Below, one piece after another: positions 31,269-64,000 of a DNA stretch of 64,000 bases (position 1 is the first letter of the stretch; every line of letters begins with the position of its first letter). Under the pieces are notes generated by a model. That model was not told the origin of the DNA, ran no database searches, and saw only the letters and a list, made by a program, of their open reading frames with translations. The translations under genes and the position numbers were made by a program. The DNA comes from an uncultured bacterium (GTDB taxonomy: Bacteria; Babelota; Babeliae; Babelales; Vermiphilaceae), in contig OY970172.1 in assembly GCA_963707655.1 (NCBI GenBank), positions 960,001 to 1,024,000 of the forward strand, read 5' to 3'.

Positions 31269-31327
31269 AAATTGCATTTTTCTTACTCCTCTATATACTA
31301 ATACATAATAATCATAGGGAGTTTATT

Positions 31328-32320: not shown

Positions 32321-32386
32321 ACGCAAGAAGTTCACTAGATTTTTGCCTGAGCGGGCAAGCTTGTTAACTGCTAAACATTCAATAAT
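32268..32386 (-). pseudogene. Relic of a transketolase 3' end
   Basis: Translates with one frameshift to IIECLAVNKLARSGK/SSELLAFKQIDASAIVAAIRRLL*, versus tkt SVECLAVSMLPRSGKAAELLAFEHIDAAAIVAAVHKLE*. Confidence 0.85.
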
Positions 32387-32462
32387 GCACAACATGAGCT
32401 AAAAACTAGCATTCATTTTACTTTTTATATAATAATACAGAGTAATTACTGAGGAGTTTGTT

Positions 32463-36005: not shown

Positions 36006-36082
36006 GTGCCCGTAGCTCAGCTGGATAGAGCGACAGACTTCTAATCTGTAGGTCGTAGGTTCGACTCCTACCGGGCACACCA
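36006..36082 (+). tRNA. tRNA-Arg(TCT); integration target
   Basis: GTGCCCG acceptor, anticodon arm ACAGA-CT-TCT-AA-TCTGT, GGTTCGACTCC, encoded CCA. Confidence 0.97.
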
Positions 36083-37800: not shown

Positions 37801-38664
37801 GTGAATATATTCAGATATATATCGAATTTATTTGATAAGGGCGTCAATTTAAAGCCCTCTATTGAGAAAAAAATCACTATCAATAATGAACCTGATTCTA
37901 AAGAGACACGCAAAAAGAGTGCTCAAAGGGTCAGAAATATCTATGATCCCTTGTCTACCAAGCCTTATAAGCTAAGTCGTAGCAAAATAGAGCTTTTCAT
38001 GCGTTGTAAGCGTTGTTTTTATATTGATCGTCGATTAGGAGTTGGGCATCCTGACGGATATCCATTTTCTCTAAATATTGCAGTCGATGAACTTTTGAAA
38101 AAAGAATTCGATATTTTTCGTCTAGAACAAAAGCCGCACCCTCTCTGCCTCGAAAATAATGTAAATGCGATTCCATTTAAGCACGAAAACTTAGAAAGCT
38201 GGCGTAAATCGCTCCATGAGGGCGTTCAATACCATGTTCCTAATACAAATCTTCTCATCCATGGTGGCCTTGATGATGTTTGGATTAATCAGGATACTGG
38301 TGAACTTCTAGTCGTTGATTACAAAGCTACCTCAAAAAACGGAGAAATAACTCTAGATGCCGATTGGCAAATTGGTTATAAGCGCCAAGCTGAAATCTAT
38401 CAGTGGCTTTTACGTAAAAATGACTTCACGGTATCTAATACTGCCTATTTTGTTTACTGCAATGGTAAAAAAGACATGCCACTGTTTGATAAAAAACTGC
38501 ACTTTGAGGTTACCTTACTGCCTTATGTAGGGAACGATTCGTGGGTGGAAGAAGCAGTTAATGGAGCTTACAGATGTCTTCAAACTAACACTATCCCTGC
38601 AGCAGAAAAGTCATGTGACTATTGTCAGTATTGGAACGGTGTCACTAACCACTTAATAAAATAA
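37801..38664 (+). CDS. PD-(D/E)XK nuclease (RecB/Cas4-like)
   Basis: LSRSKI..CKRCFY, GGLDDVW, VVDYKAT, QAEIYQWLL, C-terminal CDYC. Confidence 0.85.
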   Translation: MNIFRYISNLFDKGVNLKPSIEKKITINNEPDSKETRKKSAQRVRNIYDPLSTKPYKLSRSKIELFMRCKRCFYIDRRLGVGHPDGYPFSLNIAVDELLKKEFDIFRLEQKPHPLCLENNVNAIPFKHENLESWRKSLHEGVQYHVPNTNLLIHGGLDDVWINQDTGELLVVDYKATSKNGEITLDADWQIGYKRQAEIYQWLLRKNDFTVSNTAYFVYCNGKKDMPLFDKKLHFEVTLLPYVGNDSWVEEAVNGAYRCLQTNTIPAAEKSCDYCQYWNGVTNHLIK

Positions 38665-38699
38665 CCATCAAATTTAAAAGATGTATTGATAAAGTAAAT

Positions 38700-41600: not shown

Positions 41601-43160
41601 CGTCAACGATCAAAATATCGTGAGGGAAGCCTAGCAAAAGAACGCGTTGAGCGACTAAATAGCTTGGGCTTCGAGTGGGAATTGCCTAAATTAAAAAAGG
41701 ACGTTGTAGCACAAGAAAGAAAGTCATATTCTGAGATTTGGGAAGAAAGATTTATCTTGTTGCAGCAATATAGAGATATCCATAATCATTGTAATGTACC
41801 TCAAAATTATCAAGATAAATCGCTTGCCATGTGGGTTGGAACGCTGCGTACACTCTATAACAAAAGGAGTCCACGACTTTCGGCTGAAAAAATCAAGAAG
41901 CTTGATGCCATTGGATTCGACTGGGAGCCTACGACATCTCAGTGGGAAAATATGTTCTTAAAATTGCGTGAATTTAAACGCGTTTACGGACATTGTAATG
42001 TGCCGAGAAGCCAACGGCTTCTTGCTACATGGGTGGGCGTGCAACGTAAGCAGCATAAGAAAAATAGCATGATCCCTACCCGCATAAGTAGATTGAATGA
42101 AATCGGTTTTATATGGGACGTTAAAAAAGAATACTGGCATAAAATGTTTCATGAATTAAAGAAATTTATTGAAATTAATGGGCACTGTAATGTTTTTAGA
42201 ACAGGCAAGCTGGGCAATTGGGTTGCAAACCAGAGAGGTAATTATAAACGAGGAACGTTACCGTCTGCTCAAATTAACAAACTTAATGAAATAAATTTTG
42301 TTTTTGTCCCCTATGCTACAGCTTGGGAGAAAAATTATAGTGATTTATGCCTGTTTGTTAGGGAAAATGGGCATTGCATAATTACGTCTGAAACCCTTGT
42401 GAGTTCCCCACTCCTTACTTGGGCTCATAACCAACGTTCTGATTACAAAAATGGGAACCTATTCATAGAACAAATTAAAAAACTTAATGATATTGGTTTT
42501 GTTTGGGATTTCTTGGCTTATAAATGGGAAAAAAACTTTGAGGAGTTGCTGAAATTCAAAAGTGTTCATGGGCATTGCAACGTTCCTGGTAAGTTCAAAG
42601 AAAACATTTCCTTATCTCATTTCGTTGTTGCACTTCGTAAAAATTATAAAAAGGGAATTTTGTCTAAAGAACAGGTTAAACGGCTAAATGATCTCGGCTT
42701 TATTTGGGATGTTTTAGAAGAGCAATGGGAAAAGAAATATCAAGACTTAATCAAGTTCCATGAAATTTATAGCCACTGCAATGTTCCAAATGATTATAGT
42801 GATCAAGGGTTACTCTCTTGGATAAAAAATCAACGTACTTATAAAAAATTAGGCAAGTTATCTCCAGAGCGAGTTTGCAAACTAGATGCAATTGGGTTTG
42901 TTTGGTATGTATTAGATACTTCTTGGGATGATGCATTTACAGCTTTATGTTTATTTAAGAACACTTATGGGCACACTAAAGTTCCTGCAACGCGCGTTAT
43001 TAACAATATTGCTTTAGGTAATTGGGTCAGAACGCAACGTGCAGCTCATCAAAATAATAAGCTTACTAAAGAACGTTTTGAAAAATTACAGAGCATAGAT
43101 TTTTCTTGGGCCATTATGGCACGATCTCAAAAACAAACATCCAAACTATCTATGGAGTAG
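38700..43160 (+). CDS. Restriction-endonuclease-like domain + SF2 (DEAH) helicase + 12 helicase-associated (HA) repeats
   Basis: N-terminal GDAFE..DAGIDG..YQVKF; MACGTGKT, STYQS, DEAH, TATP, LTEGVNVP, QAAGRAMR; twelve W..........GHCNVP...WV..QR...L..IGFVW units. Confidence 0.9.
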   Translation: MISPKHLKATYFSSKGLFHNLSSFTSLENRIANLPEIERGDAFEVFAEAYLKTQSLHQVEEIWPEKSLPQSLRELLNIPSDAGIDGVFKTSSGHYKAYQVKFRSNRGSLSWGGDSLGNFFGQADRVSERILFTNSMDLSDLAASRVNFYSIKGNELDCLEPSDFKTIEDWLKTGVARRERLKPKDHQQQAINAIIDELSVKDRTTAIMACGTGKTLVALRAAEKLQAKTILVLLPSLALIRQTLHDWARDHGWEKFHFLCVCSDHTVVNDESEMILFQRDLDFAVTTQPEEIAAFLNNGNVAPKIIFSTYQSCRMVAQAMPGNFAFDLAIFDEAHKTASRLATNHAFALSENNIAIKKRLFLTATPRHYNIDVKDKFGDNQLVFSMDDETIYGRVVYKLSFRAAVEQGLICDYKVLISVITSDMLNRELLKRGEVLIDGDIIKAQRIANILAIQNAVEQYGVKRIFSFHSSISAAKSFTAKTNEGVGAYLTDFATMHVSGEMSSSKRDAILSEFRDAEKALISNARCLTEGVNVPAVDMVVFVSPKRSKVDIAQAAGRAMRKHPGKERGYILIPLFMQDAGQEELEQALAKTKFDTVWDVLQAMCEQDESLVEIIAKLREARGRILGVNDSRLRERVEILGPELALKSLRDAITTRMIDRLGLSWDERFGQLVRFKEESGHCLVPNRYPENPGLGQWVQKNRWDYKKNALGSERIKRLNEINFAWDYEEAIWNTRYLDLCHFQQINGHCNVPRNYHDRQLEYWVGTQRVSYKKGKLSSIQIKQLEKIGFVWDCIEENWHSNYSMLAEFKQKNGHFVVPKDTRENKQLATWVSAQRKLQKKGNLSSEKIYLLEQINFMWDPVKAILEERFSQILSFFEKNGHCNVPDSYDEIVPGLCSWLRSRRNLYRKNLLDIDQIKRLEEMKIKWDPFDANWEEQFEALVLYKSKNGHTSVSKKYHESPSLGLWVLRQRSKYREGSLAKERVERLNSLGFEWELPKLKKDVVAQERKSYSEIWEERFILLQQYRDIHNHCNVPQNYQDKSLAMWVGTLRTLYNKRSPRLSAEKIKKLDAIGFDWEPTTSQWENMFLKLREFKRVYGHCNVPRSQRLLATWVGVQRKQHKKNSMIPTRISRLNEIGFIWDVKKEYWHKMFHELKKFIEINGHCNVFRTGKLGNWVANQRGNYKRGTLPSAQINKLNEINFVFVPYATAWEKNYSDLCLFVRENGHCIITSETLVSSPLLTWAHNQRSDYKNGNLFIEQIKKLNDIGFVWDFLAYKWEKNFEELLKFKSVHGHCNVPGKFKENISLSHFVVALRKNYKKGILSKEQVKRLNDLGFIWDVLEEQWEKKYQDLIKFHEIYSHCNVPNDYSDQGLLSWIKNQRTYKKLGKLSPERVCKLDAIGFVWYVLDTSWDDAFTALCLFKNTYGHTKVPATRVINNIALGNWVRTQRAAHQNNKLTKERFEKLQSIDFSWAIMARSQKQTSKLSME

Positions 43161-44228
43161 TTTTTTAAGCGCAACAATTTCTTCTGGCGCTAAATCGAAT
43201 TCTTTGTTTTTATCTAATGATCTCATTATTTCTCCCTGCCTATATTCATCTACGCTGCCATAGCTGGTGAATGTTGTTAATGGATTATTATGACCTATAT
43301 TTTGACTCCATACCTTAAATTCTTCAGGAGTTTTGCACAACTTGTAACCTAATTGAGCTACGGTGTGACGAAATGAATGCGGATTGTAGTAGGTTAGTCC
43401 AGCATTGTGAAATGCCTCTTCTATCACTTTTCTCAATGATGTAGTTGATTTCCATGGAGTCGAACCAAGCAGCGTCCTGCTGAATTTATCATTAGCGCCC
43501 AGTGACAATGCGGTACAAGGAAATAATGGAGCTTCATCATCAAATAGCTTTTCCTTCTTTAAGAAATTTACCCACTCAATGAAGATTTGCTTAAGGAAAT
43601 CGCCTACAGGAAAAAAGTAGGTAATAATCATCTTGCTGTTTTTTGTTTTTACCTCGTCCGGACGTTGCTCTATGCGTTGCTCGTCCAAAAGTATGTGCTT
43701 AAGTTTGAATGAAGCTACTGCCTGAATTCTTGCGCCACTAATGGCCATAAAAGCTATGAGAGCACGGTTCCTTTTTTGAATCTCAGTTTCTGCCGGCATG
43801 CTTTTTACCACATGTTCTATTTGTTCCAAGGTAGGGTAACGTTTAGGTTTTTGAGTTCTTGCTATTCTGATGTCTTTATCTTGTAATTTGAAATACGCAA
43901 TTTCACATGAGCGTATTCTGCTTCTGTACCCAGGCTGCGTCACCAGCCACTTGAAAAAGTCACTTAGGCTTCTTGTGGCATGTAGCAGGTAGGTTTTACT
44001 GACAAGCGTTTCCGTGCGTTTTGATTTCTTTTGCATAAGATGTTTTTTGAATCCGATAGCGTCATTCTTGTTAAATAACTTGAAGCTTTTAAAGCCTGTG
44101 TATTCCTCATAAATATACAGGTAATTTTGGATGTTAATAGCAGTTGAGCTGCTCTTGCCATTAGCCTCCTTTTCCCATTCCAAATACTTACGTTTAATTC
44201 GTTCGTTTTCAGCGTTATATTTGATCAT
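43146..44228 (-). CDS. Tyrosine recombinase
   Basis: GARIQA, KTK, HSFRH, IGH, TFTSYG catalytic set. Confidence 0.9.
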   Translation of the reverse strand: MIKYNAENERIKRKYLEWEKEANGKSSSTAINIQNYLYIYEEYTGFKSFKLFNKNDAIGFKKHLMQKKSKRTETLVSKTYLLHATRSLSDFFKWLVTQPGYRSRIRSCEIAYFKLQDKDIRIARTQKPKRYPTLEQIEHVVKSMPAETEIQKRNRALIAFMAISGARIQAVASFKLKHILLDEQRIEQRPDEVKTKNSKMIITYFFPVGDFLKQIFIEWVNFLKKEKLFDDEAPLFPCTALSLGANDKFSRTLLGSTPWKSTTSLRKVIEEAFHNAGLTYYNPHSFRHTVAQLGYKLCKTPEEFKVWSQNIGHNNPLTTFTSYGSVDEYRQGEIMRSLDKNKEFDLAPEEIVALKKLLHR

Positions 44229-44240
44229 TTTAGTCTCCTT

Positions 44241-44732
44241 TTATTTGATGGTGGTAGCGGGGGTGTTGTCACACTCTATTAAATTTTTTTGCTCTAGCCC
44301 TTCTATATGGAAAATTTTCGTAAAGGTATCTATTTTTGAAGGCGATATTGTTCTATTGATGCTCGATCCACATATCTCACATATACCAACGAGATTTGTT
44401 CGTTTATTGTTATGGTGAATACGGACTTTGTTATCTTTGGTGTACCTTGCCTTCTGGCATTTGCAGCAGAACAATTGGTTTTCAGCGCAAGGTTTTTTTC
44501 TGCCAGCATTTCTTACACTTAGAAAGTCGATTAAATCTTGTCCCCATATCAAGTACGGTAGTTGATCATCTATTTTCTTGAGCCCCGTCTTTAACCAGTC
44601 GCTAATGGTACCTTTATCAACCTTGAGAAGCTCTTTGATCTCTTCTATGGAATAGGAGTTTGCGCTTCTGATGATTCTTGTATTAAATCTTTTCCGAAAC
44701 TTCTTTACGTTTTTCTGCTTTTTCTTGTACAT
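44241..44732 (-). CDS. Helix-turn-helix protein with C-terminal zinc ribbon
   Basis: YSIEEIKELLKVDKGTISDWLKTGL (excisionase-like HTH); CCKC and CEICG. Confidence 0.75.
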   Translation of the reverse strand: MYKKKQKNVKKFRKRFNTRIIRSANSYSIEEIKELLKVDKGTISDWLKTGLKKIDDQLPYLIWGQDLIDFLSVRNAGRKKPCAENQLFCCKCQKARYTKDNKVRIHHNNKRTNLVGICEICGSSINRTISPSKIDTFTKIFHIEGLEQKNLIECDNTPATTIK

Positions 44733-44863: not shown

Positions 44864-45136
44864 TTAGAATGCGCTATTAATGATTGCTTCATATTTGCGT
44901 ATGACAACATCTTCAATTGCTGTCGCAATCTCTTTGTTGATAGGATGAAAAATGGGCATACTACTGTTTAATGTTTTTCGAGTTGGGTAGGTCAACCTAT
45001 AACCACCTTGTGGGCGTGTATATATTCCTATGGAAGCAAAATAAAATAAGCTATCGAACGTGAAGCTTGCAAACGCTACAAGGCCGTCCTTTGGCTTGAG
45101 TGGAATTATTTGTATTTCTGATACCTTGTCTTTCAT
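44864..45136 (-). CDS. SpoVG-family nucleic-acid-binding protein
   Basis: GLVAFASFTFD...YPTRK...IFHPINKE pattern. Confidence 0.75.
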   Translation of the reverse strand: MKDKVSEIQIIPLKPKDGLVAFASFTFDSLFYFASIGIYTRPQGGYRLTYPTRKTLNSSMPIFHPINKEIATAIEDVVIRKYEAIINSAF

Positions 45137-46235: not shown

Positions 46236-46339
46236 CTTCTTTACCTCTTAAAATACGTTTTTTATATTCTAATCGGTAAAAGTAGATTCTCTAAGCAAAA
46301 AGTACCTGTTCTATCGCATTTATGTTAGTCTGTTCGAAG

Positions 46340-46374
46340 GTAAAAGTTCTAAAATAGTCCGATAGGGCACACCA
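46340..46374 (+). other. att junction 1 (P arm + tRNA 3' core)
   Basis: GTAAAAGTTCTAAAATAGTCCGATA-GGGCACACCA. Confidence 0.9.
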
Positions 46375-46584
46375 GCCTTCGCTTATTAGTCGCCAAGGCT
46401 ATGGCGGACAGGCCGGGGGCAAGATAGAGCTCGGCGAAAGCCTGAAGAAGCTCGTGAGAGCGAAGACAGGCAAGCTTCGTCTGGCTGCCGCCAGCAACTT
46501 TTTCACCCATTCTTTGCATCTTCATAAATCCTTGGTATATCTACTAAGACTTTTTTTATAGGAATCTGACCTTTAGGGAGAACT
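46372..46584 (+). repeat. Unit leader: nested hairpin repeats + conserved 5' region of the toxin gene (copy 1 of 4)
   Basis: Near-identical copies at 49337-49551 and 52190-52404; shorter copy at 54687-54864; each ends GGGAGAACT-ATG. Confidence 0.92.
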
Positions 46585-48489
46585 ATGAAGATTATCATTC
46601 TGATCAGTATCTTACTACAAATAGTGGCTATCCAAGCGGTATATCCCAATCGAGAGTTGACGACAAACTGGGATACCTCAACGCGAAATCGAGGCATATC
46701 ACAAAATAGTCTTGCTAAGATGAACCGTGCTCAATATATAAAAAATATTGCCGGTATCAACAGCCATTCTTCTTTCACTCCCTCTCACATTACATCCGGA
46801 ACACCTGCATACACGATGCTGCATGAGCCGCACAAATGCGCATCGTGGCAGGGGAGTGACTATTGGAATGCAATTGTCCAGGCATTCGGGCTTAAAGCAT
46901 CAATAGACAAGAATTATTATATTCCGTTCGGACTGCGTGAGTATGGCTATACTAGTGATTCACAGATTTTGTATATTCATGACGACAATATAATCCGCAT
47001 TATGCAGCAGGGGAAACTTTATGATTACGACAATTTCTGGTGCTTTATTAGCCAGTTTGATTCGTATGAATCAACACTGTTGCAACTGTTTAACAATGGC
47101 ACGCAGCGCAGCCAGCTTTCTCAAAAAGCGCGGCAGAAAATGCAACAAGAATGCACTCGCATTACTGAAAAACAACTGACAAAAGAGCGGGAGCAACAGC
47201 AGCGGTATCAGGAAGAATCGGTACGAAAACATTTTCAAGGAGAGCTTCCAGTAATTGAAGATTCAGTTGATGAGCAACAAGAATTGCATGATATTGCCCA
47301 TACATATAATTTGCATAACAAAAATCATTATGAAACGCGTCTGGCTGCCCTTGAAGATGTGGTAAGTAATAGCAGATATACCCGTGACGTGTACACTCTC
47401 GATGATGATGTGATAAGGATTCTGTCACAATCAGAATGCGATGCCAAACAATATACGACCAATTATGGCAATCAATTGCAGCAAGTCATTCACCGTGAAT
47501 GCATCGATATTGTCTCGCAAACAGCGCAACTCTCTGTCCGCTCTCCTCTTTATGATTATAAAAATTCATTAGCTAATTTTACCGATTCGGCGCGTTCATA
47601 TAACCAGGAAGGCTCATCTGGCAAAGCGATGCAAATCAATGATTTTTGCTATGCATTGCTCGATTATGGCTCAGCCATTGTTGAGGGCATTGCCTGCGGT
47701 GTCATTGGTGCAGCCAAAGATATGATTAACCATCCAGTTCAAACAGCATTGTGCGTGGTGGCCAGTGAATATGTGTTGGCCTATCAATTACTTAAAGTCA
47801 CCACCAACCTTGCCTCCATCGGTATATGCTATGCCTTTGATAAAGAAGCCGGCGCGCAACAATGGCATGATTATATTGAGCCAATAACGAATGTGATCAG
47901 CGCTATCAACAATAAAGAGGTAACGCTGCGAAACGGCATTAAAGGAGTTGTTGCCGTTGGCACCGGCATATATGCGCAAGGCAAGATGCTGAAAGGTCTA
48001 AACTCTTTTTATAGCACAACAAAAGCAAAGGCTTTTGAGTTTGTCAAAAACAATCCGTTGGTAACTCCGACTGAATATATGTCCACTCCTGAGGGAGTAT
48101 TATTTAAGGCTATACGCAATGCTCAAGAAGGATTGAATGATATTTCAGGAGAGGTTAAATCAGCATTAGATGGTATCAAAAATGACTTGAAGATGCGTTT
48201 CGAACAGCGAAGCTTGCAGCACATGTTTAGTCGGCATGCAAAGGATTTTGGAATATGCAAAGCGTGGAACAAGGCCACAGCCGTCGAGTTTGAAAAAATA
48301 ATTTTTGACCACATAAACACTGTTCACCCGATTAAAGGTACTTATCGTGGTGTACAAGAGGTTTTGCATTATTTTGATAAAAACAGCGGCCTTAATGTTA
48401 TGACGGATAAGGCCGGATCTCTTATTGGCGGATGGAAGTTAAGTGAAGATCAAATTAAATATCTCTTGTCGACTGGAGCGCTAAAATAA
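46585..48489 (+). CDS. Polymorphic toxin 1: signal peptide, conserved core, colicin D-like tRNase C-terminus
   Basis: C-terminus LQHMFSRHAKDFGI...GTYRG...HYFDKNSGLNV...GGWKL matches the colicin D nuclease pattern (KHAGDFGI, GTYR, SGWK). Confidence 0.85.
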   Translation: MKIIILISILLQIVAIQAVYPNRELTTNWDTSTRNRGISQNSLAKMNRAQYIKNIAGINSHSSFTPSHITSGTPAYTMLHEPHKCASWQGSDYWNAIVQAFGLKASIDKNYYIPFGLREYGYTSDSQILYIHDDNIIRIMQQGKLYDYDNFWCFISQFDSYESTLLQLFNNGTQRSQLSQKARQKMQQECTRITEKQLTKEREQQQRYQEESVRKHFQGELPVIEDSVDEQQELHDIAHTYNLHNKNHYETRLAALEDVVSNSRYTRDVYTLDDDVIRILSQSECDAKQYTTNYGNQLQQVIHRECIDIVSQTAQLSVRSPLYDYKNSLANFTDSARSYNQEGSSGKAMQINDFCYALLDYGSAIVEGIACGVIGAAKDMINHPVQTALCVVASEYVLAYQLLKVTTNLASIGICYAFDKEAGAQQWHDYIEPITNVISAINNKEVTLRNGIKGVVAVGTGIYAQGKMLKGLNSFYSTTKAKAFEFVKNNPLVTPTEYMSTPEGVLFKAIRNAQEGLNDISGEVKSALDGIKNDLKMRFEQRSLQHMFSRHAKDFGICKAWNKATAVEFEKIIFDHINTVHPIKGTYRGVQEVLHYFDKNSGLNVMTDKAGSLIGGWKLSEDQIKYLLSTGALK

Positions 48490-48490
48490 C

Positions 48491-48961
48491 ATGCCTGAAT
48501 ACTTTGACATCTCACTTATCATCGGAAAAAGTGAACTACAAAAACAGCAATTACAGGATTTTTTATTACACACCTTTAATCTACACGAAGAAGAAAACGA
48601 TAGCCTTCGCAATGAAATTTCAGCATTCAAAAATGTTATTCTTACCATCTATGAATCAGAGGAAATTAATTTTATAGAGTTTGGTATAAGTATTCCGAAA
48701 TGTGTTTTTCATAAAAAATCATTTGATAGAGAGTTTAATCCTATTGATTTATTTATTACGCGTTGTCTGAAAGAATGCAAATTCATTCGATTCGCTTTAT
48801 GTAGTTATGAAATGAATGCATACTATATCGGCAAATTACAAAGAATTGAAGATTTCACCCCGCTTTTTTTAGCGCATTTTCCTATCACTTACTCAAAAGA
48901 CCTGCACAATGAGTCATTTTCAAAAATAATTAATACAACGGCGCAGGACATTTTTGTTTAA
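48491..48961 (+). CDS. Candidate immunity protein for toxin 1
   Basis: Starts 1 bp after the toxin stop; small and acidic; positional inference. Confidence 0.7.
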   Translation: MPEYFDISLIIGKSELQKQQLQDFLLHTFNLHEEENDSLRNEISAFKNVILTIYESEEINFIEFGISIPKCVFHKKSFDREFNPIDLFITRCLKECKFIRFALCSYEMNAYYIGKLQRIEDFTPLFLAHFPITYSKDLHNESFSKIINTTAQDIFV

Positions 48962-49002
48962 TGTGTTCAATAAAATGGTTGCTTATGTAGCGAGGTAAGG
49001 CC

Positions 49003-49209
49003 ATGCAAAATAGATTAACGAATGAAGAAGCTTTTAATTCCATGAGGCTTTTTTTGGAAGAATATTACAAACGAACATCATCCGATGATATTGGTTCGCT
49101 GTTGGGGGATTTAATTCTTTTAGCAGACCAAACAACAGCAGATCCAGCCGCTTGGGAAGATTGGATGGACTGCGTTAAAAAAGTTAAAGAGAAAGAATAT
49201 CCATTGTGA
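49003..49209 (+). CDS. Small acidic protein, probable orphan immunity protein
   Basis: GAGG RBS; EEAFNSMRLFLEEYY...ADPAAWEDW. Confidence 0.6.
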   Translation: MQNRLTNEEAFNSMRLFLEEYYKRTSSDDIGSLLGDLILLADQTTADPAAWEDWMDCVKKVKEKEYPL

Positions 49210-49304
49210 TGGAGGCATTTTTGAAGAGCATCTGTATTTAGTAGCTTTAGATACCTATCGCAAAAAGTATTTGCTTAATCTGACTTATGCTCAAGTCTTC
49301 ATAA

Positions 49305-49339
49305 CAAAAGTTGCTGAAATAGTCCGATAGGGCACACCA
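49305..49339 (+). other. att junction 2
   Basis: CAAAAGTTGCTGAAATAGTCCGATA-GGGCACACCA. Confidence 0.9.
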
Positions 49340-49551
49340 CTCTTCGTTTATTCCGCCGTCGCCAAGGCTATGGCGGACAGGCCGGGGGCAAGATAGAGCT
49401 CGGCGAAAGCCTGAAGAAGCTCGTGAGAGCGAAGACAGGCAAGCTTCGTCTGGCTGCCGCCAGCAACTTTTTTACCCATTCTTTGCATCTTCATAAATCC
49501 TTGGTATATCTACTAAGACTTTTTCCAGGAATCTAACTTTCAGGGAGAACT

Positions 49552-51483
49552 ATGAAGATTATTATTTTGATCGGCATTCTACTACAATCAGCAGCTATCC
49601 AAGCCGTGTATCCCACTAGAGAGTTAACAACAAACTGGGATATCTCAACGCGAAGTCGCGGCATATCACAAAATAGTCTTGATCACATGAACCGTCCTCA
49701 ATATGTAAAGGGCATTGCCTGCCTTGACCAGTGTCATGCGAAGCGCGACTCTGCGCGACCATCTTCTATACTTTTCACTAATCCAAAACAATGTGCTTAT
49801 TGGACATCATCTGATTATTATGCCGCTCTAGCCCATGACTATGGCATACCAATTACCATTGAAAACGCAGGGAGCATAGCAGAAGAGTTGCGTTATTACC
49901 ATTGCCCTCATGATCAAAGAAATTTTTTGTATATCCCCGAATACGTCATTACCAATATTATGCATCAAGAGAAGCTGTACGCTCATAAAAATTTCATCGA
50001 TTTTATAAAAAAATTTGATTGGTATGAGGATGAGTTATTGGCTCTGCATGATAAAGTTATGCACAGACACGATTCTTGGAAGTCATTTTTTAAAAAGAAG
50101 TTTTCAGATCAGGTGATAGCTGCACTAGTATCTGAGCGCAATCGAATTGTTAACGCAAGAAGAGACAAAAGAAAGCGCGAAGTTGAAGCCACCGTCATAA
50201 AAAATAATTTTCAAAGCGAGTTACCTGGCATCCAAGGGATGGTCAATGAGCAACAAGAGTTGCATGAGATTGCCAATACATATAACTTGCATAACAAAAA
50301 TCATTATGAAACTCGTCTGGCCGCGCTTGAAGATGTTTTGAACAGCAGAAGCTGCACGCAGCAATCGTACAGCTTCAACAATGATGCATTGACCTTGCTT
50401 TCACAAGTAGGGTGCAGTGCTGAACAGTATAAAACCAATTGCGGCAATCAACTGCAGCAGGTTATTCACCGTGAATGCATCGATATTGTCTCACAGGCAG
50501 CGCAACTTTCTGTGCATTCTCCCCTCTATGATTATAAAAATTCATTAGTTAATTTTACCGATTCGGCTCGTTCATATAATCAGGAAGGCTCGTCTGGCAG
50601 AGCGATGCAAATCAATGATTTTTGCTATGCATTACTCGATTATGGCTCGGCCATTGTTGAGGGCATTGCCTGTGGTGTCATTGGCGCAGCCAAAGATATG
50701 ATTAACCATCCAGTTCAGACAGCGCTGTGCGTAGTGGCCGGTGAATATGTGTTGGCCTATCAATTGCTTAAAGTCACCACTAACCTTGCCTCCATCGGAA
50801 TATCCTATGCCTTTGATAAAGAAGCCGGCGCGCAACAATGGCATGATTACATTGAGCCAATAACGAGCGTGATCAGCGCCATTACCAACAAAGAAATAAC
50901 CCTGCGTGACGGGATTAAAGGAGCAGTCGCTCTTGGCACCGGTATGTATGCGCAAGGCAAGATGCTTAAAGGACTGAACTCTTTTTACAATACAACAAAA
51001 ACAAAAGCTCTTGAATTCGTTAAAAATAATCCTTTGGCAACTCCTGCCGAATACATGACTACTTCTGACGGGGTATTGTTTAAAGCAACACAAGAGTCTT
51101 TATGCAATAAGTCTCAAAAGAACATCGAAAGTCATTTTAAGCAAGAAGTAGGTCAAACACAGACGTCGCTAGGTAGGCCTGCTTATTCTCTTCCTGCCAA
51201 GGTTGAACAAGCAATAGCATATGCCACAAATGATACAAAATTAAAACATTTTTTTGTTAACGAAATGCACGGATTTGAGCCATTGCTTGAGAAAATGAAT
51301 GGTGATCAAAAAAAACTTATCAGAGAAATCGTAAATGCCTTAACCAGAAACGCAATATTACCTACAGCTGGAGAATTCAAAAATATTCCGGTCAGCCTTG
51401 ATGGACAAGTTATACATGTTAGAGGTTTTGTGCATAATGACATTATTAAAATTGGTACTATGTTCATTCCAGAAGGAAAATAA
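49552..51483 (+). CDS. Polymorphic toxin 2 (intact); putative RNase C-terminus
   Basis: Same signal peptide and core as toxin 1; different CT after EGVLFK-like junction (KLKHFF..MHG...VRGFVHNDIIKIGTMFIP). Confidence 0.8.
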   Translation: MKIIILIGILLQSAAIQAVYPTRELTTNWDISTRSRGISQNSLDHMNRPQYVKGIACLDQCHAKRDSARPSSILFTNPKQCAYWTSSDYYAALAHDYGIPITIENAGSIAEELRYYHCPHDQRNFLYIPEYVITNIMHQEKLYAHKNFIDFIKKFDWYEDELLALHDKVMHRHDSWKSFFKKKFSDQVIAALVSERNRIVNARRDKRKREVEATVIKNNFQSELPGIQGMVNEQQELHEIANTYNLHNKNHYETRLAALEDVLNSRSCTQQSYSFNNDALTLLSQVGCSAEQYKTNCGNQLQQVIHRECIDIVSQAAQLSVHSPLYDYKNSLVNFTDSARSYNQEGSSGRAMQINDFCYALLDYGSAIVEGIACGVIGAAKDMINHPVQTALCVVAGEYVLAYQLLKVTTNLASIGISYAFDKEAGAQQWHDYIEPITSVISAITNKEITLRDGIKGAVALGTGMYAQGKMLKGLNSFYNTTKTKALEFVKNNPLATPAEYMTTSDGVLFKATQESLCNKSQKNIESHFKQEVGQTQTSLGRPAYSLPAKVEQAIAYATNDTKLKHFFVNEMHGFEPLLEKMNGDQKKLIREIVNALTRNAILPTAGEFKNIPVSLDGQVIHVRGFVHNDIIKIGTMFIPEGK

Positions 51484-51485
51484 AT

Positions 51486-52040
51486 ATGCATTGGAAACAG
51501 AAGCTTGGAACGCTGGAGAAACAGAAAAAATGGGATGCTGCCATAGAATTAATGATCCATGTTATTGATGAGAATTCTGGGTCTATAGATCCGTATATTT
51601 ATATGAATTATTTACTTATGAATCTTTTGGTAGAAGAAGATTATGACAATGATAAATATAGCTATTACAAATTATTAATAAAAAAATATTTTGACGAATC
51701 TTATGCTAAATTTTCTGATAATGCTGAGTATCTTTTTTTCACTGCTTCCACCGCTCTAATGTCTGAGTGGCATTTTGATATTGATGTAAAAGATTATGAT
51801 GCAATGTTTAAAAAAGCTCTAGTCTTAGAACCCGATAATCTTCTTTATCAAGACTATTATTACACTATGCTAGATAAAACTATCCCAAGCAATAAAAAGG
51901 CCGCAGTAGAATATGCAAAAAAAATACTGGAACCAAAGTCTTCTATTCAAATAATATTGAATTCCAAAGGCGCTATAGGAGAACGCCTTTTGGGATTAAT
52001 GACAAATTGGAGCTTAAGGATTCTTGGCATGAAGCCTTGA
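51486..52040 (+). CDS. Candidate immunity protein for toxin 2
   Basis: Starts 2 bp after the toxin stop; helical; paralogue of 56795-57355, which follows the paralogous CT. Confidence 0.78.
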   Translation: MHWKQKLGTLEKQKKWDAAIELMIHVIDENSGSIDPYIYMNYLLMNLLVEEDYDNDKYSYYKLLIKKYFDESYAKFSDNAEYLFFTASTALMSEWHFDIDVKDYDAMFKKALVLEPDNLLYQDYYYTMLDKTIPSNKKAAVEYAKKILEPKSSIQIILNSKGAIGERLLGLMTNWSLRILGMKP

Positions 52041-52157
52041 GGCTCTTCCAAGCACACCTTAACAAAGTATATAGGGATAAAATATCCTTGATGGCTTTTT
52101 TGCTAATGACCAATATCACCCAAAGACCATATTGCCAAAACTAACGAATTGTCCACA

Positions 52158-52192
52158 GAGAAGTTGCTGAAATAGACCGATAGGGCACACCA
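52158..52192 (+). other. att junction 3
   Basis: GAGAAGTTGCTGAAATAGACCGATA-GGGCACACCA. Confidence 0.9.
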
Positions 52193-52404
52193 CTCTTCGT
52201 TTATTCCGCCGTCGCCAAGGCTATGGCGGACAGGCTGGGGGCAAGATAGAGCTCGGCGAAAGCCTGAAGAAGCTCGTGAGAGCGAAGACAGGCAAGCTTC
52301 GTCTGGCTGCCGCCAGCAACTTTTTTACCCATTCTTTGCATCTTCATAAATCCTTGGTATATCTACTAAGACTTTTTCCAGGAATCTAACTTTCAGGGAG
52401 AACT

Positions 52405-54303
52405 ATGAAGATTATTATTTTGATCGGCATTCTACTACAATCAGCAGCTATCCAAGCCGTGTATCCCACTAGAGAGTTAACAACAAACTGGGATATCTCA
52501 ACGCGAAGTCGCGGCATATCACAAAATAGTCTTGATCACATGAACCGTCCTTAATATGTAAAGGGCATTGCCTGCCTTGACCAGTGTCATGCGAAGCGCG
52601 ACTCTGCGCGACCATCTTCTATACTTTTCACTAATCCAAAACAATGTGCTTATTGGACATCATCTGATTATTATGCCGCTCTAGCCCATGACTATGGCAT
52701 ACCAATTACCATTGAAAACGCAGGGAGCATAGCAGAAGAGTTGCGTTATTACCATTGCCCTCATGATCAAAGAAATTTTTTGTATATCCCCGAATACGTC
52801 ATTACCAATATTATGCATCAAGAGAAGCTGTACGCTCATAAAAATTTCATCGATTTTATAAAAAAATTTGATTGGTATGAGGATGAGTTATTGGCTCTGC
52901 ATGATAAAGTTATGCACAGACACGATTCTTGGAAGTCATTTTTTAAAAAGAAGTTTTCAGATCAGGTGATAGCTGCACTAGTATCTGAGCGCAATCGAAT
53001 TGTTAACGCAAGAAGAGACAAAAGAAAGCGCGAAGTTGAAGCCACCGTCATAAAAAATAATTTTCAAAGCGAGTTACTTGGCATCCAAGGGATGGTCAAT
53101 GAGCAACAAGAGTTGCATGAGATTGCCAATACATATAACTTGCATAACAAAAATCATTATGAAACTCGTCTGGCCGCGCTTGAAGATGTTTTGAACAGCA
53201 GAAGCTGCACGCAGCAATCGTACAGCTTCAACAATGATGCATTGACCTTGCTTTCACAAGTAGGGTGCAGTGCTGAACAGTATAAAACTAATTATGGTAA
53301 TCAATTGCAGCAAGTCATTCACCGTGAATGCATCGATATTGTCTCACAGGCAGCGCAACTTTCTGTGCATTCTCCCCTCTATGATTATAAAAATTCATTA
53401 GTTAATTTTACCGATTCGGCTCGTTCATATAATCAGGAAGGCTCGTCTGGCAGAGCGATGCAAATCAATGATTTTTGCTATGCATTACTCGATTATGGCT
53501 CGGCCATTGTTGAGGGCATTGCCTGTGGTGTCATTGGCGCAGCCAAAGATATGATTAACCATCCAGTTCAGACAGCGCTGTGCGTAGTGGCCGGTGAATA
53601 TGTGTTGGCCTATCAATTGCTTAAAGTCACGACTAACCTTGCCTCCATCGGAATATCCTATGCCTTTGATAAAGAAGCTGGCGAGCAGCAATGGCATGAA
53701 TATATTGAGCCGATAACGAGCGTGATCAGCGCTATCAAAAACAAAGAGCTGACTCTGCGAGATGGCATTAAAGGAGCCGTCACCCTTGGCACCGGTATGT
53801 ATGCGCAAGGCAAGATGCTTAAAGGTCTGAATTCTTTTTACAACACGACAAAAGCAAAAGCTCTTGAATTCGCTAAAAATAATCCGTTGGTCACTCCTTT
53901 TGAGTATATGACCACTCAAGAGGGAGTGTTGTTTAAGGTTACCGATAAAACAAGTAAAACTGGTCCTTGGCAACAAAATGATATCGAATGGATTCCTTAT
54001 GGCCACAAGCACATTGCTAGTAAAAAAATGAGTTGGAAAGATATTCTTCAATTCACAAAAAATGGCCCTGCCAAATATAAACCAGAAATTAATGTTGAAC
54101 TCTTAGAAACAATGGCATGGCAAAAGGGAACAATGATTCCTGGTAAGAACTGGAAAATTTATCAATGTGAAGACATAATTGGTGCAAACAATGGCATTGA
54201 AACTAACTTTATGATAGTAAAAAATAGTATGGCTACAATTCATGGACATCCAATAACCCCGCAAGAATTTAAACAATACATGAATATGATAGGAAAATTA
54301 TGA
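52405..54303 (+). pseudogene. Polymorphic toxin 3, nonsense mutation at codon 50
   Basis: ATG 52405 matches the copy 2 start; CAA->TAA at 52552-52554; rest of frame open; distinct CT (GHKH...GPAKYK...IHGHPIT). Confidence 0.85.
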
Positions 54304-54614
54304 AACTTAATATAAACCTGAATAATGGGATTATTGTCTATGATGAATTTAATATTGATCCCAATCTCCCGCTAAAAGATCAAATTATGGAATTGCAAGA
54401 AGATCTTCTACAAATACAATATGATAATAATGTAGTTATTGACGTTGGATGGTATCCTGAACTTGATCCATCCGGAAGCTTTATTATTAATATAATAAAA
54501 GATTCTGATTGGTCTCATCCTATATATAAAAAAACAGTTAAATTAAAAAATATTGTTGCTGAACTACAAAAAGCAATTGATTTGGCTCTCACATTAAATG
54601 GTCGATCTATCTAA
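54300..54614 (+). CDS. Candidate immunity protein for toxin 3
   Basis: ATGA overlap with toxin stop; acidic; EDLLQ...DVGWYP motif. Confidence 0.78.
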   Translation: MKLNINLNNGIIVYDEFNIDPNLPLKDQIMELQEDLLQIQYDNNVVIDVGWYPELDPSGSFIINIIKDSDWSHPIYKKTVKLKNIVAELQKAIDLALTLNGRSI

Positions 54615-54654
54615 ACACAATTTCTTGACCTGATTGAGAACATCAGCTTCAAAA

Positions 54655-54689
54655 GAAAAGTTGCTGAAATAGACCGATAGGGCACACCA
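54655..54689 (+). other. att junction 4
   Basis: GAAAAGTTGCTGAAATAGACCGATA-GGGCACACCA. Confidence 0.9.
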
Positions 54690-54864
54690 GCCTTCGCTTA
54701 TTCCGTTGTCGCCAAGGCTATGGCTGACATGGCCGGGCAAGAGAAGACTCGGCAAGCTTCGTCTGGCTGCCGCCAGCAACTTTTTTACCCATTCTTTGCA
54801 TCTTCATAAATCCTTGGTATATCTACTAAGACTTTTTCCAGGAATCTAACTTTCAGGGAGAACT

Positions 54865-56788
54865 ATGAAGATTATTATTTTGATCGGCATTCTACTACAA
54901 TCAGCAGCTATCCCAAGCCGTGTATCCCACTAGAGAGTTAACAACAAACTGGGATATCTCAACGCGAAATCGCGGCATATCACAAAATAGTCTTGATCAC
55001 ATGAACCGTCCTCAATATGTAAAGGGCATTGCCTGCCTTGACCAGTGTCATGCGAAGCGCGACTCTGCGCGACCATCTTCTATACTTTTCACTAATCCAA
55101 AACAATGTGCTTATTGGACATCATCTGATTATTATGCCGCTCTAGCCCATGACTATGGCATACCAATTACCATTGAAAACGCAGGGAGCATAGCAGAAGA
55201 GTTGCGTTATTACCATTGCCCTCATGATCAAAGAAATTTTTTGTATATCCCCGAATACGTCATTACCAATATTATGCATCAAGAGAAGCTGTACGCTCAT
55301 AAAAATTTCATCGATTTTATAAAAAAATTTGATTGGTATGAGGATGAGTTATTGGCTCTGCATGATAAAGTTATGCACAGACACGATTCTTGGAAGTCAT
55401 TTTTTAAAAAGAAGTTTTCAGATCAGGTGATAGCTGCACTAGTATCTGAGCGCAATCGAATTGTTAACGCAAGAAGAGACAAAAGAAAGCGCGAAGTTGA
55501 AGCCACCGTCATAAAAAATAATTTTCAAAGCGAGTTACCTGGCATCCAAGGGATGGTCAATGAGCAACAAGAGTTGCATGAGATTGCCAATACATATAAC
55601 TTGCATAACAAAAATCATTATGAAACTCGTCTGGCCGCGCTTGAAGATGTTTTGAACAGCAGAAGCTACACGCAGCAATCGTACAGCTTCAACAATGATG
55701 CATTGACCTTGCTTTCACAAGTAGGGTGCAGTGCTGAACAGTATAAAACTAATTATGGTAATCAATTGCAGCAAGTCATTCACCGTGAATGCATCGATAT
55801 TGTCTCACAGGCAGCGCAACTTTCTGTGCATTCTCCCCTCTATGATTATAAAAATTCATTAGTTAATTTCACCGATTCGGCGCGTTCATATAATCAAGAA
55901 GGCCTGTCTGGCAGAGCGATACAAATCAATGACTTTTGCTACGCATTACTCGATTATGGCTCAGCCATTGTTGAGGGCATTGCCTGTGGTGTCATTGGCG
56001 CAGCCAAAGATATGCTTAACCATCCAGTTCAAACAGCGCTGTGCGTAGTGGCCGGTGAATATGTGTTGGCCTATCAATTGCTTAAAGTCACCACCAACCT
56101 TGTATCTATTGGCATAAGCTATGCTTTTGATAAAGAAGCTGGGGCGCAACAGTGGCATGAATATATTGAACCAATCACCAATGTTATAAGCGCCATTACC
56201 AACAAAAAATTGTCCCTGCGTGACGGCTTTAAAGGAGCCGCCGCCCTTGGCACCGGTATGTATGCGCAAGGCAAGATGCTTAAACGACTGAACTCTTTTT
56301 ACAATACAACAAAAACAAAAGCTCTTGAATTCGTTAAAAATAATCCTTTGGCAACTCCTGCCGAATACATGACTACTTCTGACGGGGTATTGTTTAAAGC
56401 AACACAAGAGTCTTTATGCAATAAGTCTCAAAAAGACATCGAAAGTTATTTTAAACAAGAAGTACCGCAAGGCCAGTCAAACTTGCCTACTTATTCTCTT
56501 CCATCTAAGATTGAACAAGCCGTAAAATATGCTACAACCAATGAAAAACTTGAATATTTTTTTAAAAAAGAAATGCATGGGCTTGAGCCATTGCTAAAAA
56601 CAATGGATAACAACAAAGAAAAAGTTGTTCGTGAAGTTATCGGGTTGTTGTCAATTAACAATGATATGCCTAGATTTGGTAAGTTTGATGGAATACCTAT
56701 AAATATAAATGGATATATTGTTCATGCACGGGGATTTGTTCATGATGATGTTATTAAACTTGGCACTATCTTTATTCCGCAAGGGTAA
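54865..56788 (+). pseudogene. Polymorphic toxin 4, +1 frameshift in the signal peptide
   Basis: ATG 54865; GCTATCCCAAGCC here versus GCTATCCAAGCC in copies 2 and 3 (extra C at ~54912-54914); CT paralogous to toxin 2. Confidence 0.85.
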
Positions 56789-56794
56789 ATAACT

Positions 56795-57355
56795 ATGTCT
56801 TGGAAAGAGAAGCTTAGAACATTAGAGCGACAAAAAGAATGGGACGCTGCTATAGAACTAATGATCCATACCATTAATCACAACCCAGATGACATGGATG
56901 CATATATATATATGAATTATTTACTCATGAATCTTTTGGTAGAGGAAGATCATACTAGCATTGATGAAAACAAGTTTGCTTATTATGAAACGCTGACCAA
57001 GCATTACTTCGATGAGTCTTATGCTAAATTTTCAAATAATGCAGAATATCTTTTCTTCACTGCAACAACAGCTGTCATGTCTGAGTGGTTTTTTGGCATT
57101 GATGTGCCGGACTATGAAGCTATGTTTCAAAAAGCTATGCTTCTCGAGCCCAACAACCTCCTTTATCAAAGAATTTACTATATGGATCTTGATAAAACTA
57201 TCCCTGGTAATAAAAAGGCTGCAATGGAATATGCTAAAAAAATTTTAGATAAAGATTCTCCTATTCAAAAAACATTGAAGTCTAAAGGCGCTGTTGGCGC
57301 GTATTTGCTAGAATTGATGACAAATTCAAGTTTGGAGATGCTCGGCATGAAATAA
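56795..57355 (+). CDS. Candidate immunity protein for toxin 4
   Basis: Intact; shares WDAAIELMIH, YIYMNYLLMNLLVEED, YFDESYAKFS with 51486-52040. Confidence 0.78.
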   Translation: MSWKEKLRTLERQKEWDAAIELMIHTINHNPDDMDAYIYMNYLLMNLLVEEDHTSIDENKFAYYETLTKHYFDESYAKFSNNAEYLFFTATTAVMSEWFFGIDVPDYEAMFQKAMLLEPNNLLYQRIYYMDLDKTIPGNKKAAMEYAKKILDKDSPIQKTLKSKGAVGAYLLELMTNSSLEMLGMK

Positions 57356-57413
57356 CTAATAACTTGTAGCAAAAAGTATCTGCTGATCCTGATTCATGCT
57401 AATCTGGTCAAGT

Positions 57414-57448
57414 AAAAAGTTGCTGAAATAATCCGATAGGGTACACCA
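57414..57448 (+). other. att junction 5 (one mismatch in core)
   Basis: AAAAAGTTGCTGAAATAATCCGATA-GGGTACACCA. Confidence 0.85.
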
Positions 57449-57682
57449 GCTTTCGCTAAAGCTTCAGCTGGCAGACAGGTCGTCTGTACCATTGTAGAAA
57501 AACTTTAATAGTAAATAGCGAAGACGGTCCGAAGAAGCCGCGGGTATAGACGGACTTTTTCCAAAAAAGTAAATCTCTAGCAATTTTTGTCCGTAACTTA
57601 TTAGTCTTACATTGATCAGCAAGGTCACAAAACATCGGCATAATGAACCCTCACATTGTACTTGGATGAGGCATTGTGATCG

Positions 57683-58189: not shown

Positions 58190-58226
58190 ATTGCATCTAA
58201 GTTGAGAGTGCTAAGAAGGCTGTTGT

Positions 58227-58784: not shown

Positions 58785-59252
58785 ACTATTTTCCTCTGCA
58801 TCAGCTCAGCTATTTTTCAATATTTTCTTTAACTCATCTTACCAATGGTTTCTGTTTTTAAAAATGGTTCTCAAAGCAACTTTAATGGAAAGTTATAATT
58901 AAAATCAACAACATTCATAAGTATTTCATGGTTCGCAGGAACAATCATGAGAATCCGCAGAAATGATCACATATCTCTAGCAAGTAGTATTCGCCTGATG
59001 TCGAATAAATTAATATTTTTCTGTACAGAAGTTGGGTGAAATAAGCCGACAAATGCATAATAATCTGCGCAGAAATATCGAGTGACTTTTTTTGATTTCT
59101 GTGTGGGAACTATGAAGATTATTATCCTGAATTGAAGATTCTCTATATTGGCTTTTAAATGGCTGACAATTTTAGTGCGTTCATGGAAACTCTTTATTTT
59201 TCACTTCAAAAATATGTATAAGATATAAAATAATATTTATAGAGGAGTTTAC

Positions 59253-59807: not shown

Positions 59808-59869
59808 GAAAGATCATCACTAAAAGTATCGGCCCAACCTGACTCATGTTGACCTGATCACAATCACAA

Positions 59870-59928
59870 CAAAAGTTGCTCAAGTAGTGCGCACATAAGT
59901 GCCCCGATAATCCAATAGGGGCACACCA
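59870..59928 (+). other. att junction 6, degenerate, with internal inverted duplication
   Basis: CAAAAGTTGCTCAAGTAG...GTGCCCC-gataatccaata-GGGGCACACCA. Confidence 0.75.
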
Positions 59929-60030
59929 GTTCTCGCTAAGGCTTGCTATGTTCTCTGTATTATTGAACTTTGCGTAGCACTTCAGGAAAAATTATGAAAT
60001 TATTCAAACTGAGTTTGTTGATTGTGTTTA

Positions 60031-60339: not shown

Positions 60340-61198
60340 TAAAATCTCCTTATTTTTCTTTAAGATCCAATCTAAAACTGAAGATCAATCATTCTTGCTG
60401 ATTGCCGGAAAGTTCCGCAAATCATGTAAGCGGTGGGAACTTTGGAGAAATTGGAATCTCGACTTCACGCAGAAGCGGATGCGTAACCTCTCTCACATTT
60501 TTAGTTTTAGCGCTCATTTTAATTCCTTATCTTCTTTAAAAATGAATTTTTATTGCGTGCATAAAGTCACTATTATTCACTTGTTATGAGTATTGTTACT
60601 ATTTAAAGCAAATGTTTATGCCCCAGGTCAAGAGCTTAATCGGCTATCGGCGATAAAGTTGAACAGCCGATCGAGCTGCATGGCACGACTGCATGAAACG
60701 TGTAAAAAAATTGAACGTAAGGAATACTTTGATAGTTTTTTTGGCTAAAGAATAATATTGCCTAAGGATCGTATTGCCAAAACTAACGAATTCTCTATAA
60801 AAGAGCTGCTGTACTCAATAGGAAAAATACAATAACCTACGGAGAAGTATTTTAATAGATAAGGCTGTTCTCTCTTTTAACCGCTCCGCTGCAAATCGAA
60901 TTGATAATATTAATCCATAATGCTAAAAGTATTTTTTTTCTAAAAAATAAGTCCTTTCATGACTTGCTCAGATTTAGACTAGCAAATTTATTTTTTTTTA
61001 ATATAATGATCAAAAAATTAGAATCTTGAGGCCTTTATAATTCCTAACATTTTAGGTTTTTAGTAGTTGAGCGTTATTAACAGAGCGCGCTGTATCTTTA
61101 CGATTAAACGCAGTGGTCTGTAATTTTTAAAAATCATGATCTTATAAATCATGAAAATTCATCATATTTAAAGACTTACTAATTAGGAATGTATACTT

Positions 61199-63997: not shown

Positions 63998-64000
63998 TAA

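Follow-up and report, generated by a model that had tools for sequence, protein, structure and literature searches.

In Dehalococcoides, the 3' end of the gene for the serine integrase DsiB overlaps attL, the left attachment (att) junction, and McMurdie et al., who reported this in 2011 (PMC3146451), propose that DsiB is complete only when its island is circular or follows an adjacent island from which the 3' fragment comes. A similarly split gene is found in the genome of an uncultured bacterium of the Vermiphilaceae (Babelales), which is assembled as one 1.09-Mb contig (OY970172.1; GCA_963707655.1) and from which a window of 64 kb was analysed (positions 960,001 to 1,024,000; window coordinates are used below). 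By its named homologues, this bacterium belongs to Dependentiae/Babeliales. Here the gene for a large serine recombinase (LSR) lies at tRNA-Arg(TCT), and five short att arms, each of which begins at a copy of the last 10 nucleotides (nt) of that tRNA gene, are spaced along the minus strand with putative toxin-immunity units between them. As judged from their sequence, the arms are genuine C-terminal tails of tRNA-targeting LSRs in which attP lies inside the integrase gene.

The resemblance to the ssrA islands of Dehalococcoides extends from the split serine integrase to the integrase-less tandem islands, which in that genus are separated by target-end repeats and of which 15 are without the integration module (PMC3146451). 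In that paper the target is the T-loop of the transfer-messenger RNA gene ssrA, whereas here it is the acceptor end of tRNA-Arg(TCT); the islands described there carry dehalogenases rather than polymorphic toxins, and their six-gene module (with a second small serine recombinase and ParB and Mom homologues) has no counterpart among the genes of our element scanned with Pfam. The DsiB 3' fragment is not analysed as a conserved, selected peptide in the available portion of the 2011 paper, as the arm tails are here. A split serine integrase with integrase-less tandem islands was thus already known, but we found no description of its coupling to a toxin array. Our literature search, which covered titles and abstracts, returned no description of conserved LSR tails at tRNA arrays, nor any joint occurrence of "Dependentiae" and "polymorphic toxin".

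Integrase-less units are also known as cis-mobilizable elements (CIMEs), which Guedon et al. 2017 (PMC5704250) discuss together with site-specific accretion. As in the CIMEs of that account, the units of this locus lack an integrase and are stacked behind an element with which they may be able to move. They may also be bounded by att sites: the right P arm and both cores are retained, but the left end is a post-tRNA repeat. They differ from CIMEs as presented there in that the right site also encodes an integrase tail and that, on the left, the core is followed by a repeat of host type where a CIME retains the end of an element. The tycheposons of Hackl et al. (10.1101/2020.12.28.424599) are islands that grow at tRNA ends by flank capture and later precise excision. 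A proximal-to-distal age gradient would be common to both systems; however, 910 of the 937 tycheposons use tyrosine recombinases, and the accessible text makes no mention of a split integrase.

An attP inside the integrase gene and a tRNA target are shared with IntP of Mx8 (as cited in PMC4383910) and with the archaeal suicidal integrases of Badel et al. 2020 (PMC7253208), who proposed that hybrid integrases arise via tandem insertion. Integrases of the Mx8 and SSV types are tyrosine recombinases, while the enzyme here is a serine recombinase, and tandem insertions, which according to the part of the Badel et al. paper at hand were unobserved in its data set, occur often here. The LSR described here loses no more than about 23 residues and keeps all three catalytic and DNA-binding domains intact. 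According to the Islander paper of 2014 (PMC4383910), no serine integrase was known to use a tRNA gene as its target. PMC12884075 and PMC12286644 bring nothing further to this comparison. Polymorphic toxin-immunity cassettes have been described beside attR in prophages of Mycobacterium abscessus (PMC8092301), and like ours these have a conserved N-terminus and a variable tip and adjoin attachment junctions; as far as that description goes, they are single prophage cassettes with WXG100 export, in contrast to the serial arrays found here, which are bounded by integrase tails and have a different N-terminal domain. Unlike the sites of integrons, which are those of the tyrosine integrase IntI, the sites of this locus are LSR att arms.

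Split LSR and open frames of the arms

The integration target is tRNA-Arg(TCT) (36006..36082, plus strand), whose last 10 nt (36073-36082) form the core common to every junction. The resident LSR gene (36068..37537, minus strand) encodes the integrated short form of 489 amino acids, with the Pfam domain order of a large serine recombinase: Resolvase, Recombinase and zinc-ribbon (PF00239, PF07508, PF13408). The gene runs through the core, and its last codons are the antisense of the tRNA 3' end (attL); an unsplit form with a conserved C-terminus exists, as expected of an integrase with attP inside its gene.

The five arms, all on the minus strand, were identified by translation and by a profile of natural LSR tails. 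Arm 1 (46291..46374; 27 codons ending in LFA) is most likely the P arm of the resident element's own attR, and the remaining four are classed as orphan LSR tails: arm 2 (49247..49339; 30 codons, another allele), arm 3 (52103..52192; 29 codons, the most divergent), arm 4 (54594..54689; 31 codons) and arm 5 (57356..57448; 30 codons). Arm 4 is 88% identical over 77 nt to an arm at a second tRNA-Arg array in this genome. The initial annotation had described these stretches as stop-free integrase-tail frames kept open despite strong nucleotide divergence; its five translations, coordinates and lengths are exact, and Q(V/I)LFA is common to arms 1, 2 and 5. The first 33 nt, however, are 82-97% identical among the arms, and because of this only codons 12-27 test the coding claim.

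Chance was proposed with that annotation as a condition that would overturn it, and is rejected: of 20,000 shufflings of codons 12-27, 0.25% keep all five arms open. Both remaining sense frames are interrupted by stops in 5/5 arms. We derived a 33-nt DNA pattern from the arms of the window together with five from relatives, and 32 of the 34 arms picked with it in this genome and in relatives are stop-free over nt 34-78, versus 9.9 ± 2.6 in shuffles (maximum 19 in 2000), although this contrast is inflated because the arms are related and not independent. Pure DNA-site conservation was likewise rejected as the cause of codons 12-27. The pattern matches in 25 of 261 genomes of the order, seven times in this genome and at most twice in any other; there was no exact match in the viral contigs searched, and the six exact matches in the genome collection all belong to entries named Dependentiae/Babeliales or unclassified.

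Match to natural LSR C-termini

The arms correspond to the ends of complete LSRs. Among the best 120 of 5,689 LSR homologues, which were examined for C-terminal type, seven run in frame into an arm-type tail and four more into related tails, while most end in tRNA antisense. One tail-bearing homologue (P0082) is matched by the LSR of L092, a 9.8-kb contig with a 127-nt terminal repeat, a single core and no tRNA at the gene end, which is probably a free circle. The tail profile, built from 10 of the 11 database tails (P0100 excluded) and from no window arms, finds all seven intact arms of the genome at E-values of 3e-12 to 2e-5, the next match in the genome having an E-value of 0.41. Codons 12-27 fit the natural tails better than do their own shuffles, with p values of 0.0002 (arms 1 and 2), 0.0018 (arm 4), 0.0026 (arm 5) and 0.027 (arm 3).

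Constraint on the encoded peptide is visible among close relatives: in five independent pairs at least 70% identical, among 37 arms, the ratio of nonsynonymous to synonymous differences (pN/pS) is 0.43 (Fisher p 0.0009). The comparison of substitution rates (dN/dS) that had been suggested for the arms themselves is a weak test on the five window arms alone (0.88, saturated), in which no synonymous bias can be seen, and the bias is clear only in the close pairs. A pooled dN/dS of 0.70 over all arm pairs was dropped as support, being saturated and equalled by the mirror antisense frame (0.71). Natural tails, profile matches, shuffle fits and pN/pS bear out the view that the arms evolved as protein-coding sequence. 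On integration, the LSR gene loses its conserved tail of about 23 residues, which stays at the far junction, and gains a few codons of tRNA antisense instead.

Related LSRs ending in tRNA antisense are widespread in metagenome and viral contigs (L091-L195); the tRNAs that they use are those for Arg, Asn, Asp, Gln, Glu, Pro, Ile, His, Trp, Ala and Leu.

Origin of arms 2-5 and a natural foreign tail

Over 19 elements, LSR body and tail vary together (Mantel rho 0.52, p 0.0006). The tails most like arm 1 belong to LSRs that share 74% and 71% identity with the resident enzyme, and arms 2-5 have other best matches, which argues that arm 1 is most likely the resident LSR's own tail and that arms 2-5 come from other alleles. 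The earlier proposal that the arms derive from different related elements is thereby supported. If it is right, the tails would be readable barcodes of past elements, from which the order and origin of the island layers could be reconstructed.

One locus of a relative, L042, has the order tRNA-Asp, leader, toxin, immunity gene, arm A joined in frame to a complete, unsplit LSR, cargo and arm B (positions 9037 and 15188). Against tails of the subfamily to which the L042 LSR belongs, arm B scores 12-57 and arm A only -25 to 2, which puts the enzyme's own tail type at the far junction; the tails that arm A does fit (scores 35-40) come with LSRs that are only 32-35% identical to the L042 LSR. Nature therefore offers an LSR with what is, by these scores, a foreign tail, located where a toxin-immunity unit ends. 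L042 would be a natural case of the 2011 proposal of an integrase completed by the 3' fragment of a neighbouring island (PMC3146451).

The initial annotation had further suggested that excision at alternative junctions could give the single LSR gene up to five different C-termini. Five alternative C-termini are possible: they would be in frame, and L042 offers one precedent. Tail exchange looks like a by-product and not a maintained switch, since arms 2 and 5 overrun the usual LFA end by three residues, the end of arm 4 is antisense to immunity gene 3, and the length of 26-29 codons, found in 7/7 LSR-linked first arms, is kept in only 10/27 non-first arms. The locus nevertheless offers five natural tail and att variants for one enzyme, with which the role of the tail is directly testable.

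Toxin-immunity units between the arms

Arms 1-4 are each followed by a leader of approximately 175-210 nt, a gene for a protein of 620-640 amino acids whose N-terminus is conserved and whose tip varies, and a small gene. Such a leader-toxin-immunity unit, which is without an integrase, is closed by each of arms 2-5. All of the following features are on the plus strand. In the first unit, leader 1 (46375..46584), identified by sequence comparison, consists of a dispersed post-tRNA palindromic repeat and a remnant of the 3' end of a GIY-YIG-like gene. It is followed by polymorphic toxin 1 (46585..48489; 634 amino acids, intact), assigned a colicin D-like tip by domain match, and by putative immunity gene 1 (156 amino acids), whose role is suggested by its position, with a 68-amino-acid open reading frame (ORF) (together 48491..49209). 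This ORF (49003-49209), which lies between immunity gene 1 and arm 2, has no Pfam match and is possibly an orphan immunity gene.

The second unit comprises a leader and polymorphic toxin 2 (49340..51483; toxin at 49552-51483, 643 amino acids, intact), with a tip outside any Pfam family, and putative immunity gene 2 (51486..52040; 184 amino acids), again named by position. Alignment of the units places a premature stop near the 5' end of toxin 3 (leader and toxin 52193..54303; toxin from 52405) and a frameshift near the 5' end of toxin 4 (leader and toxin 54690..56788; toxin from 54865), the tip of which is of the same family as that of toxin 2. By position, putative immunity gene 3 (54300..54614; 104 amino acids), which overlaps the far end of arm 4, and putative immunity gene 4 (56795..57355; 186 amino acids), which is 70% identical to immunity gene 2 and has a stop codon abutting that of arm 5, belong to these two toxins.

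Besides the colicin D-like tip of toxin 1, the tips in the family include Ntox17, Ntox21, Ntox35 and EndoU, which were found among 62 toxin homologues; a conserved N-terminus with such varied tips identifies a polymorphic toxin family, and the small downstream gene changes with the tip, as expected of polymorphic toxins, its immunity role being putative. The N-terminus is hydrophobic by sequence and matches no family, and an ESM Atlas search gave only borderline toxin-cluster leads (approximately 0.9). Units 2-4 are 99-100% identical over most of their first kilobase and mosaic beyond it, and one tip family (toxins 2 and 4) is closed by the very different arms 3 and 5, which indicates homologous shuffling.

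The leaders resemble a dispersed repeat that follows other tRNAs, together with the end of the GIY-YIG-like gene that is intact at the second array. To the right of the core, junctions 2 and 3 are 90% identical to junction 1, although our crude automatic label called them "other". A palindromic repeat, sometimes with the GIY-YIG-like gene, is found directly 3' of tRNAs and att cores across the order (e.g. C1:110950-111073 of this genome) and is possibly a small mobile element in its own right. The repeat appears to be REP-like, and the gene is presumably of the GIY-YIG type. Predicted folding of the leaders is no stronger than that of shuffles (z -0.08 to -1.39), and a promoter scan was at chance level (10 versus 9.4).

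Proposed growth of the array

We consider it somewhat more probable than the contrary that this locus represents an additive island anchored to a tRNA, which grew at tRNA-Arg through tandem accretion while integrase-less units were picked up and dropped off and tips were shuffled by homologous recombination; the toxin arsenal was probably stacked up by successive LSR elements behind tRNA-Arg. The tRNA side, core, P arm and LSR-end arm are conserved at the junctions, and the sequence right of attR (the B' side) is not, from which we infer that an occupied tRNA end would stay a target and that new elements would insert ahead of old ones. The array would then run from newest, near the tRNA, to oldest. 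Any arm near enough to arm 1 (27-29 of 33 nt) may act as attR; excision at a distal arm would carry the intervening units, and the enzyme would gain that arm's tail. In a new host, the units would stay in place once the element had excised precisely at its own arm, and homologous recombination between conserved toxin N-termini would mix tips, immunity genes and arms. Arms 2-5 would be mostly fossils that are still usable as attR. Distal-arm excision would account for the host-type leader at the start of each unit, for LSR-free arrays and for L042. On this account, the tails link one integrase family to the assembly of a polymorphic toxin array in intracellular bacteria of a little-studied phylum, and LSRs that can use tRNA ends whatever sequence lies to the right may serve as tools.

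Relatives carry comparable arrangements. In 11 of the 30 loci of relatives in which arms were mapped, tRNA-Arg is followed by 0.7-7 kb of LSR-free cargo and then an arm, the cargo being varied and not of one cassette type. The toxin N-terminus is matched in 41 of 151 genomes, and a toxin-immunity pair is closed by an arm in L037 (tRNA-Ala), L041 (tRNA-Glu), L042 (tRNA-Asp), L044 (tRNA-Gln) and L048 (tRNA-Glu), in units that span three LSR subfamilies. In L037 and L041, two toxins have an arm between them. For most other loci among the 23 toxin-bearing loci listed no arm was found, our arm detection being crude for other LSR subfamilies. L082 (4594-10561) has two copies of tRNA-Arg(TCG); an LSR gene end comes after each copy, and a toxin lies between the two. 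The same-genus genome is without an LSR match, and its contig stops approximately 400 nt past the tRNA.

Several observations weigh against the additive island. Within their first 33 nt, arms 2-5 carry 4-6 differences from arm 1, and these might prevent the resident LSR from acting; a dyad scan of the att sites gave weak maxima (0.36-0.42 versus approximately 0.25) on several axes, with no clear axis or crossover. No circle with an internal arm was found, and the only circular relative, L092, has a single core. Among public reads, no run contained more than 0.18 of the sampled words and no RNA run was listed; the short contigs from four runs gave no att joint, which is no evidence either way. 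The lesions of toxins 3 and 4 could be sequencing errors. Only toxin 1 of the window has a recognised tip, and the toxin and immunity functions are putative throughout. Finally, in L055 and L056 (2/30 loci) an LSR gene-end remnant lies right after the junction, and plain tandem insertion with deletion therefore also yields multi-arm loci.

Tandem insertion followed by deletion or by recombination of toxin N-termini is thus a real alternative and probably also operates. As the whole explanation, it would make the array a pure fossil record: every unit would be what remains at the right of its own LSR element, inserted in tandem and stripped of its integrase by either route, with arms 2-5 not reused and no tail swap. 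Beyond the L055 and L056 remnants, the presence of toxin-immunity genes within the element beside an arm in L037 and L041, the near-identical toxin N-termini that would serve as recombination substrate and the drift in length of the orphan arms are in its favour. We nevertheless regard so strict a version as unlikely: after the five window junctions there is no remnant of an LSR gene end, each starting instead with the post-tRNA type of repeat; the 101 nt after the tRNA in L048, which recur (86% identical) after the next arm, fit a unit moved along with its left flank; and the L042 unit sits between the tRNA and the LSR element.

An extension of the additive island, which we hold to be doubtful, is that LSRs act as a cassette shuttle for polymorphic toxins in Dependentiae, with old tails as live attR sites, such that the resident element exits with zero to four units and the junction used sets the C-terminal tail, possibly a degradation or directionality tag. 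Cargo load would then be coupled to integrase behaviour. Less probable still is an integron-like system in which leader-toxin-immunity-arm units move singly via the LSR and the tails are a selected repertoire of C-termini. The unit layout is common to five tRNA types, L042 carries its foreign tail naturally, open frames persist and, given the core, no fusion would shift the frame; however, orphan arms decay and toxins 3-4 are broken, the LSR-free units of relatives have varied cargo, and the leaders do not fold more strongly than shuffles. LSRs are not known normally to perform the attR x attR reaction that excision of a single unit needs. An assembly chimera of strain variants joined via toxin N-termini, suggested by the approximately 1 kb at 99-100% identity among units 2-4 and by the want of read evidence across the array (public reads are sparse), is very improbable given a genome in one 1.09-Mb contig, units that differ in tip, immunity gene, arm and lesions, and the two-toxin arrays of L037 and L041, and it would leave the identity of the arms as LSR tails untouched.

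The weakest step of the additive-island proposal concerns what the tail does: most likely it tunes the enzyme in the free circle, in stability or direction. Seven of 11 natural full-length LSRs end in Ala, compared with 7% of the long ORFs of this genome. C-terminal ssrA-like tags offer an analogy, and the Ala ends hint that the LSR tail may be a degradation tag, although they are a lead only, because the 11 proteins are related. An AlphaFold2 model of a natural full-length LSR, made with a 12-sequence alignment, gave no usable structure for the tail (predicted local distance difference test score below 50).

Other genes of the resident element

In a Pfam scan, the cargo of the resident element (37801..44732) was found to include a PD-(D/E)XK nuclease, a helicase with helicase-associated (HA) repeats, a tyrosine recombinase and a small helix-turn-helix (HTH) protein. 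The helicase (38700-43160; 1486 amino acids) has 12 HA repeats and adjoins the nuclease; helicase and PD-(D/E)XK cargo also occurs in the LSR element of L043 and is possibly defence cargo. The tyrosine recombinase and small HTH gene (43146-44732) are also paired in L031, and the recombinase scores far under the curated cut-offs of the NCBIfam models that it matches.

A SpoVG-like gene (44864..45136, minus strand) recurs in related LSR elements, mostly 1-5 kb from the right arm. It is present in 11 of 78 related loci searched (those with an arm or an LSR of these families), including the circle L092, and its product is a candidate directionality or regulatory factor. A 338-amino-acid gene product shows no likeness to its positional counterpart on L092.

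Decayed arms and the second array

Beyond arm 5, three decayed arms were found on the minus strand. The first (58978..59050), detected with the tail profile, is frameshifted and has lost its core, and a toxin-start remnant lies at 59107-59130. The second (59820..59928), recognised by likeness to arm 5, has a core with an insertion between it and the tail, and the third (60764..60811), recognised by likeness to arm 3, has lost its core and has a second copy just past the window edge. The profile E-values of these three arms and the one beyond are 0.03-2, backed by direct likeness to arms 3 and 5. The initial annotation mentions neither these arms nor the two intact arms of the second array, nor that toxin-immunity pairs fill the spaces between arms. 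Decay thus follows a gradient, with toxins 1-2 intact, toxins 3-4 broken and the distal arms decayed. The decayed arms are interleaved with a low-GC stretch (57449-64000) that encodes a PBP, peroxiredoxin, PfpI, thioredoxin and a methyltransferase, and this region probably represents older layers of the same island.

The second array (C1:312098-318567 of the genome) is at tRNA-Arg(TCG) and has no LSR, two intact arms and one toxin unit. Its cargo consists of an intact GIY-YIG-like gene, an Ntox17 toxin and a putative immunity gene, together with genes that are presumably RelE-like and PhzF-like. Elsewhere in the window, four paralogous genes with an HSHGG motif, three of them in tandem, lie at 22933-24252 and 30297-33497; these are presumably lipase-like.

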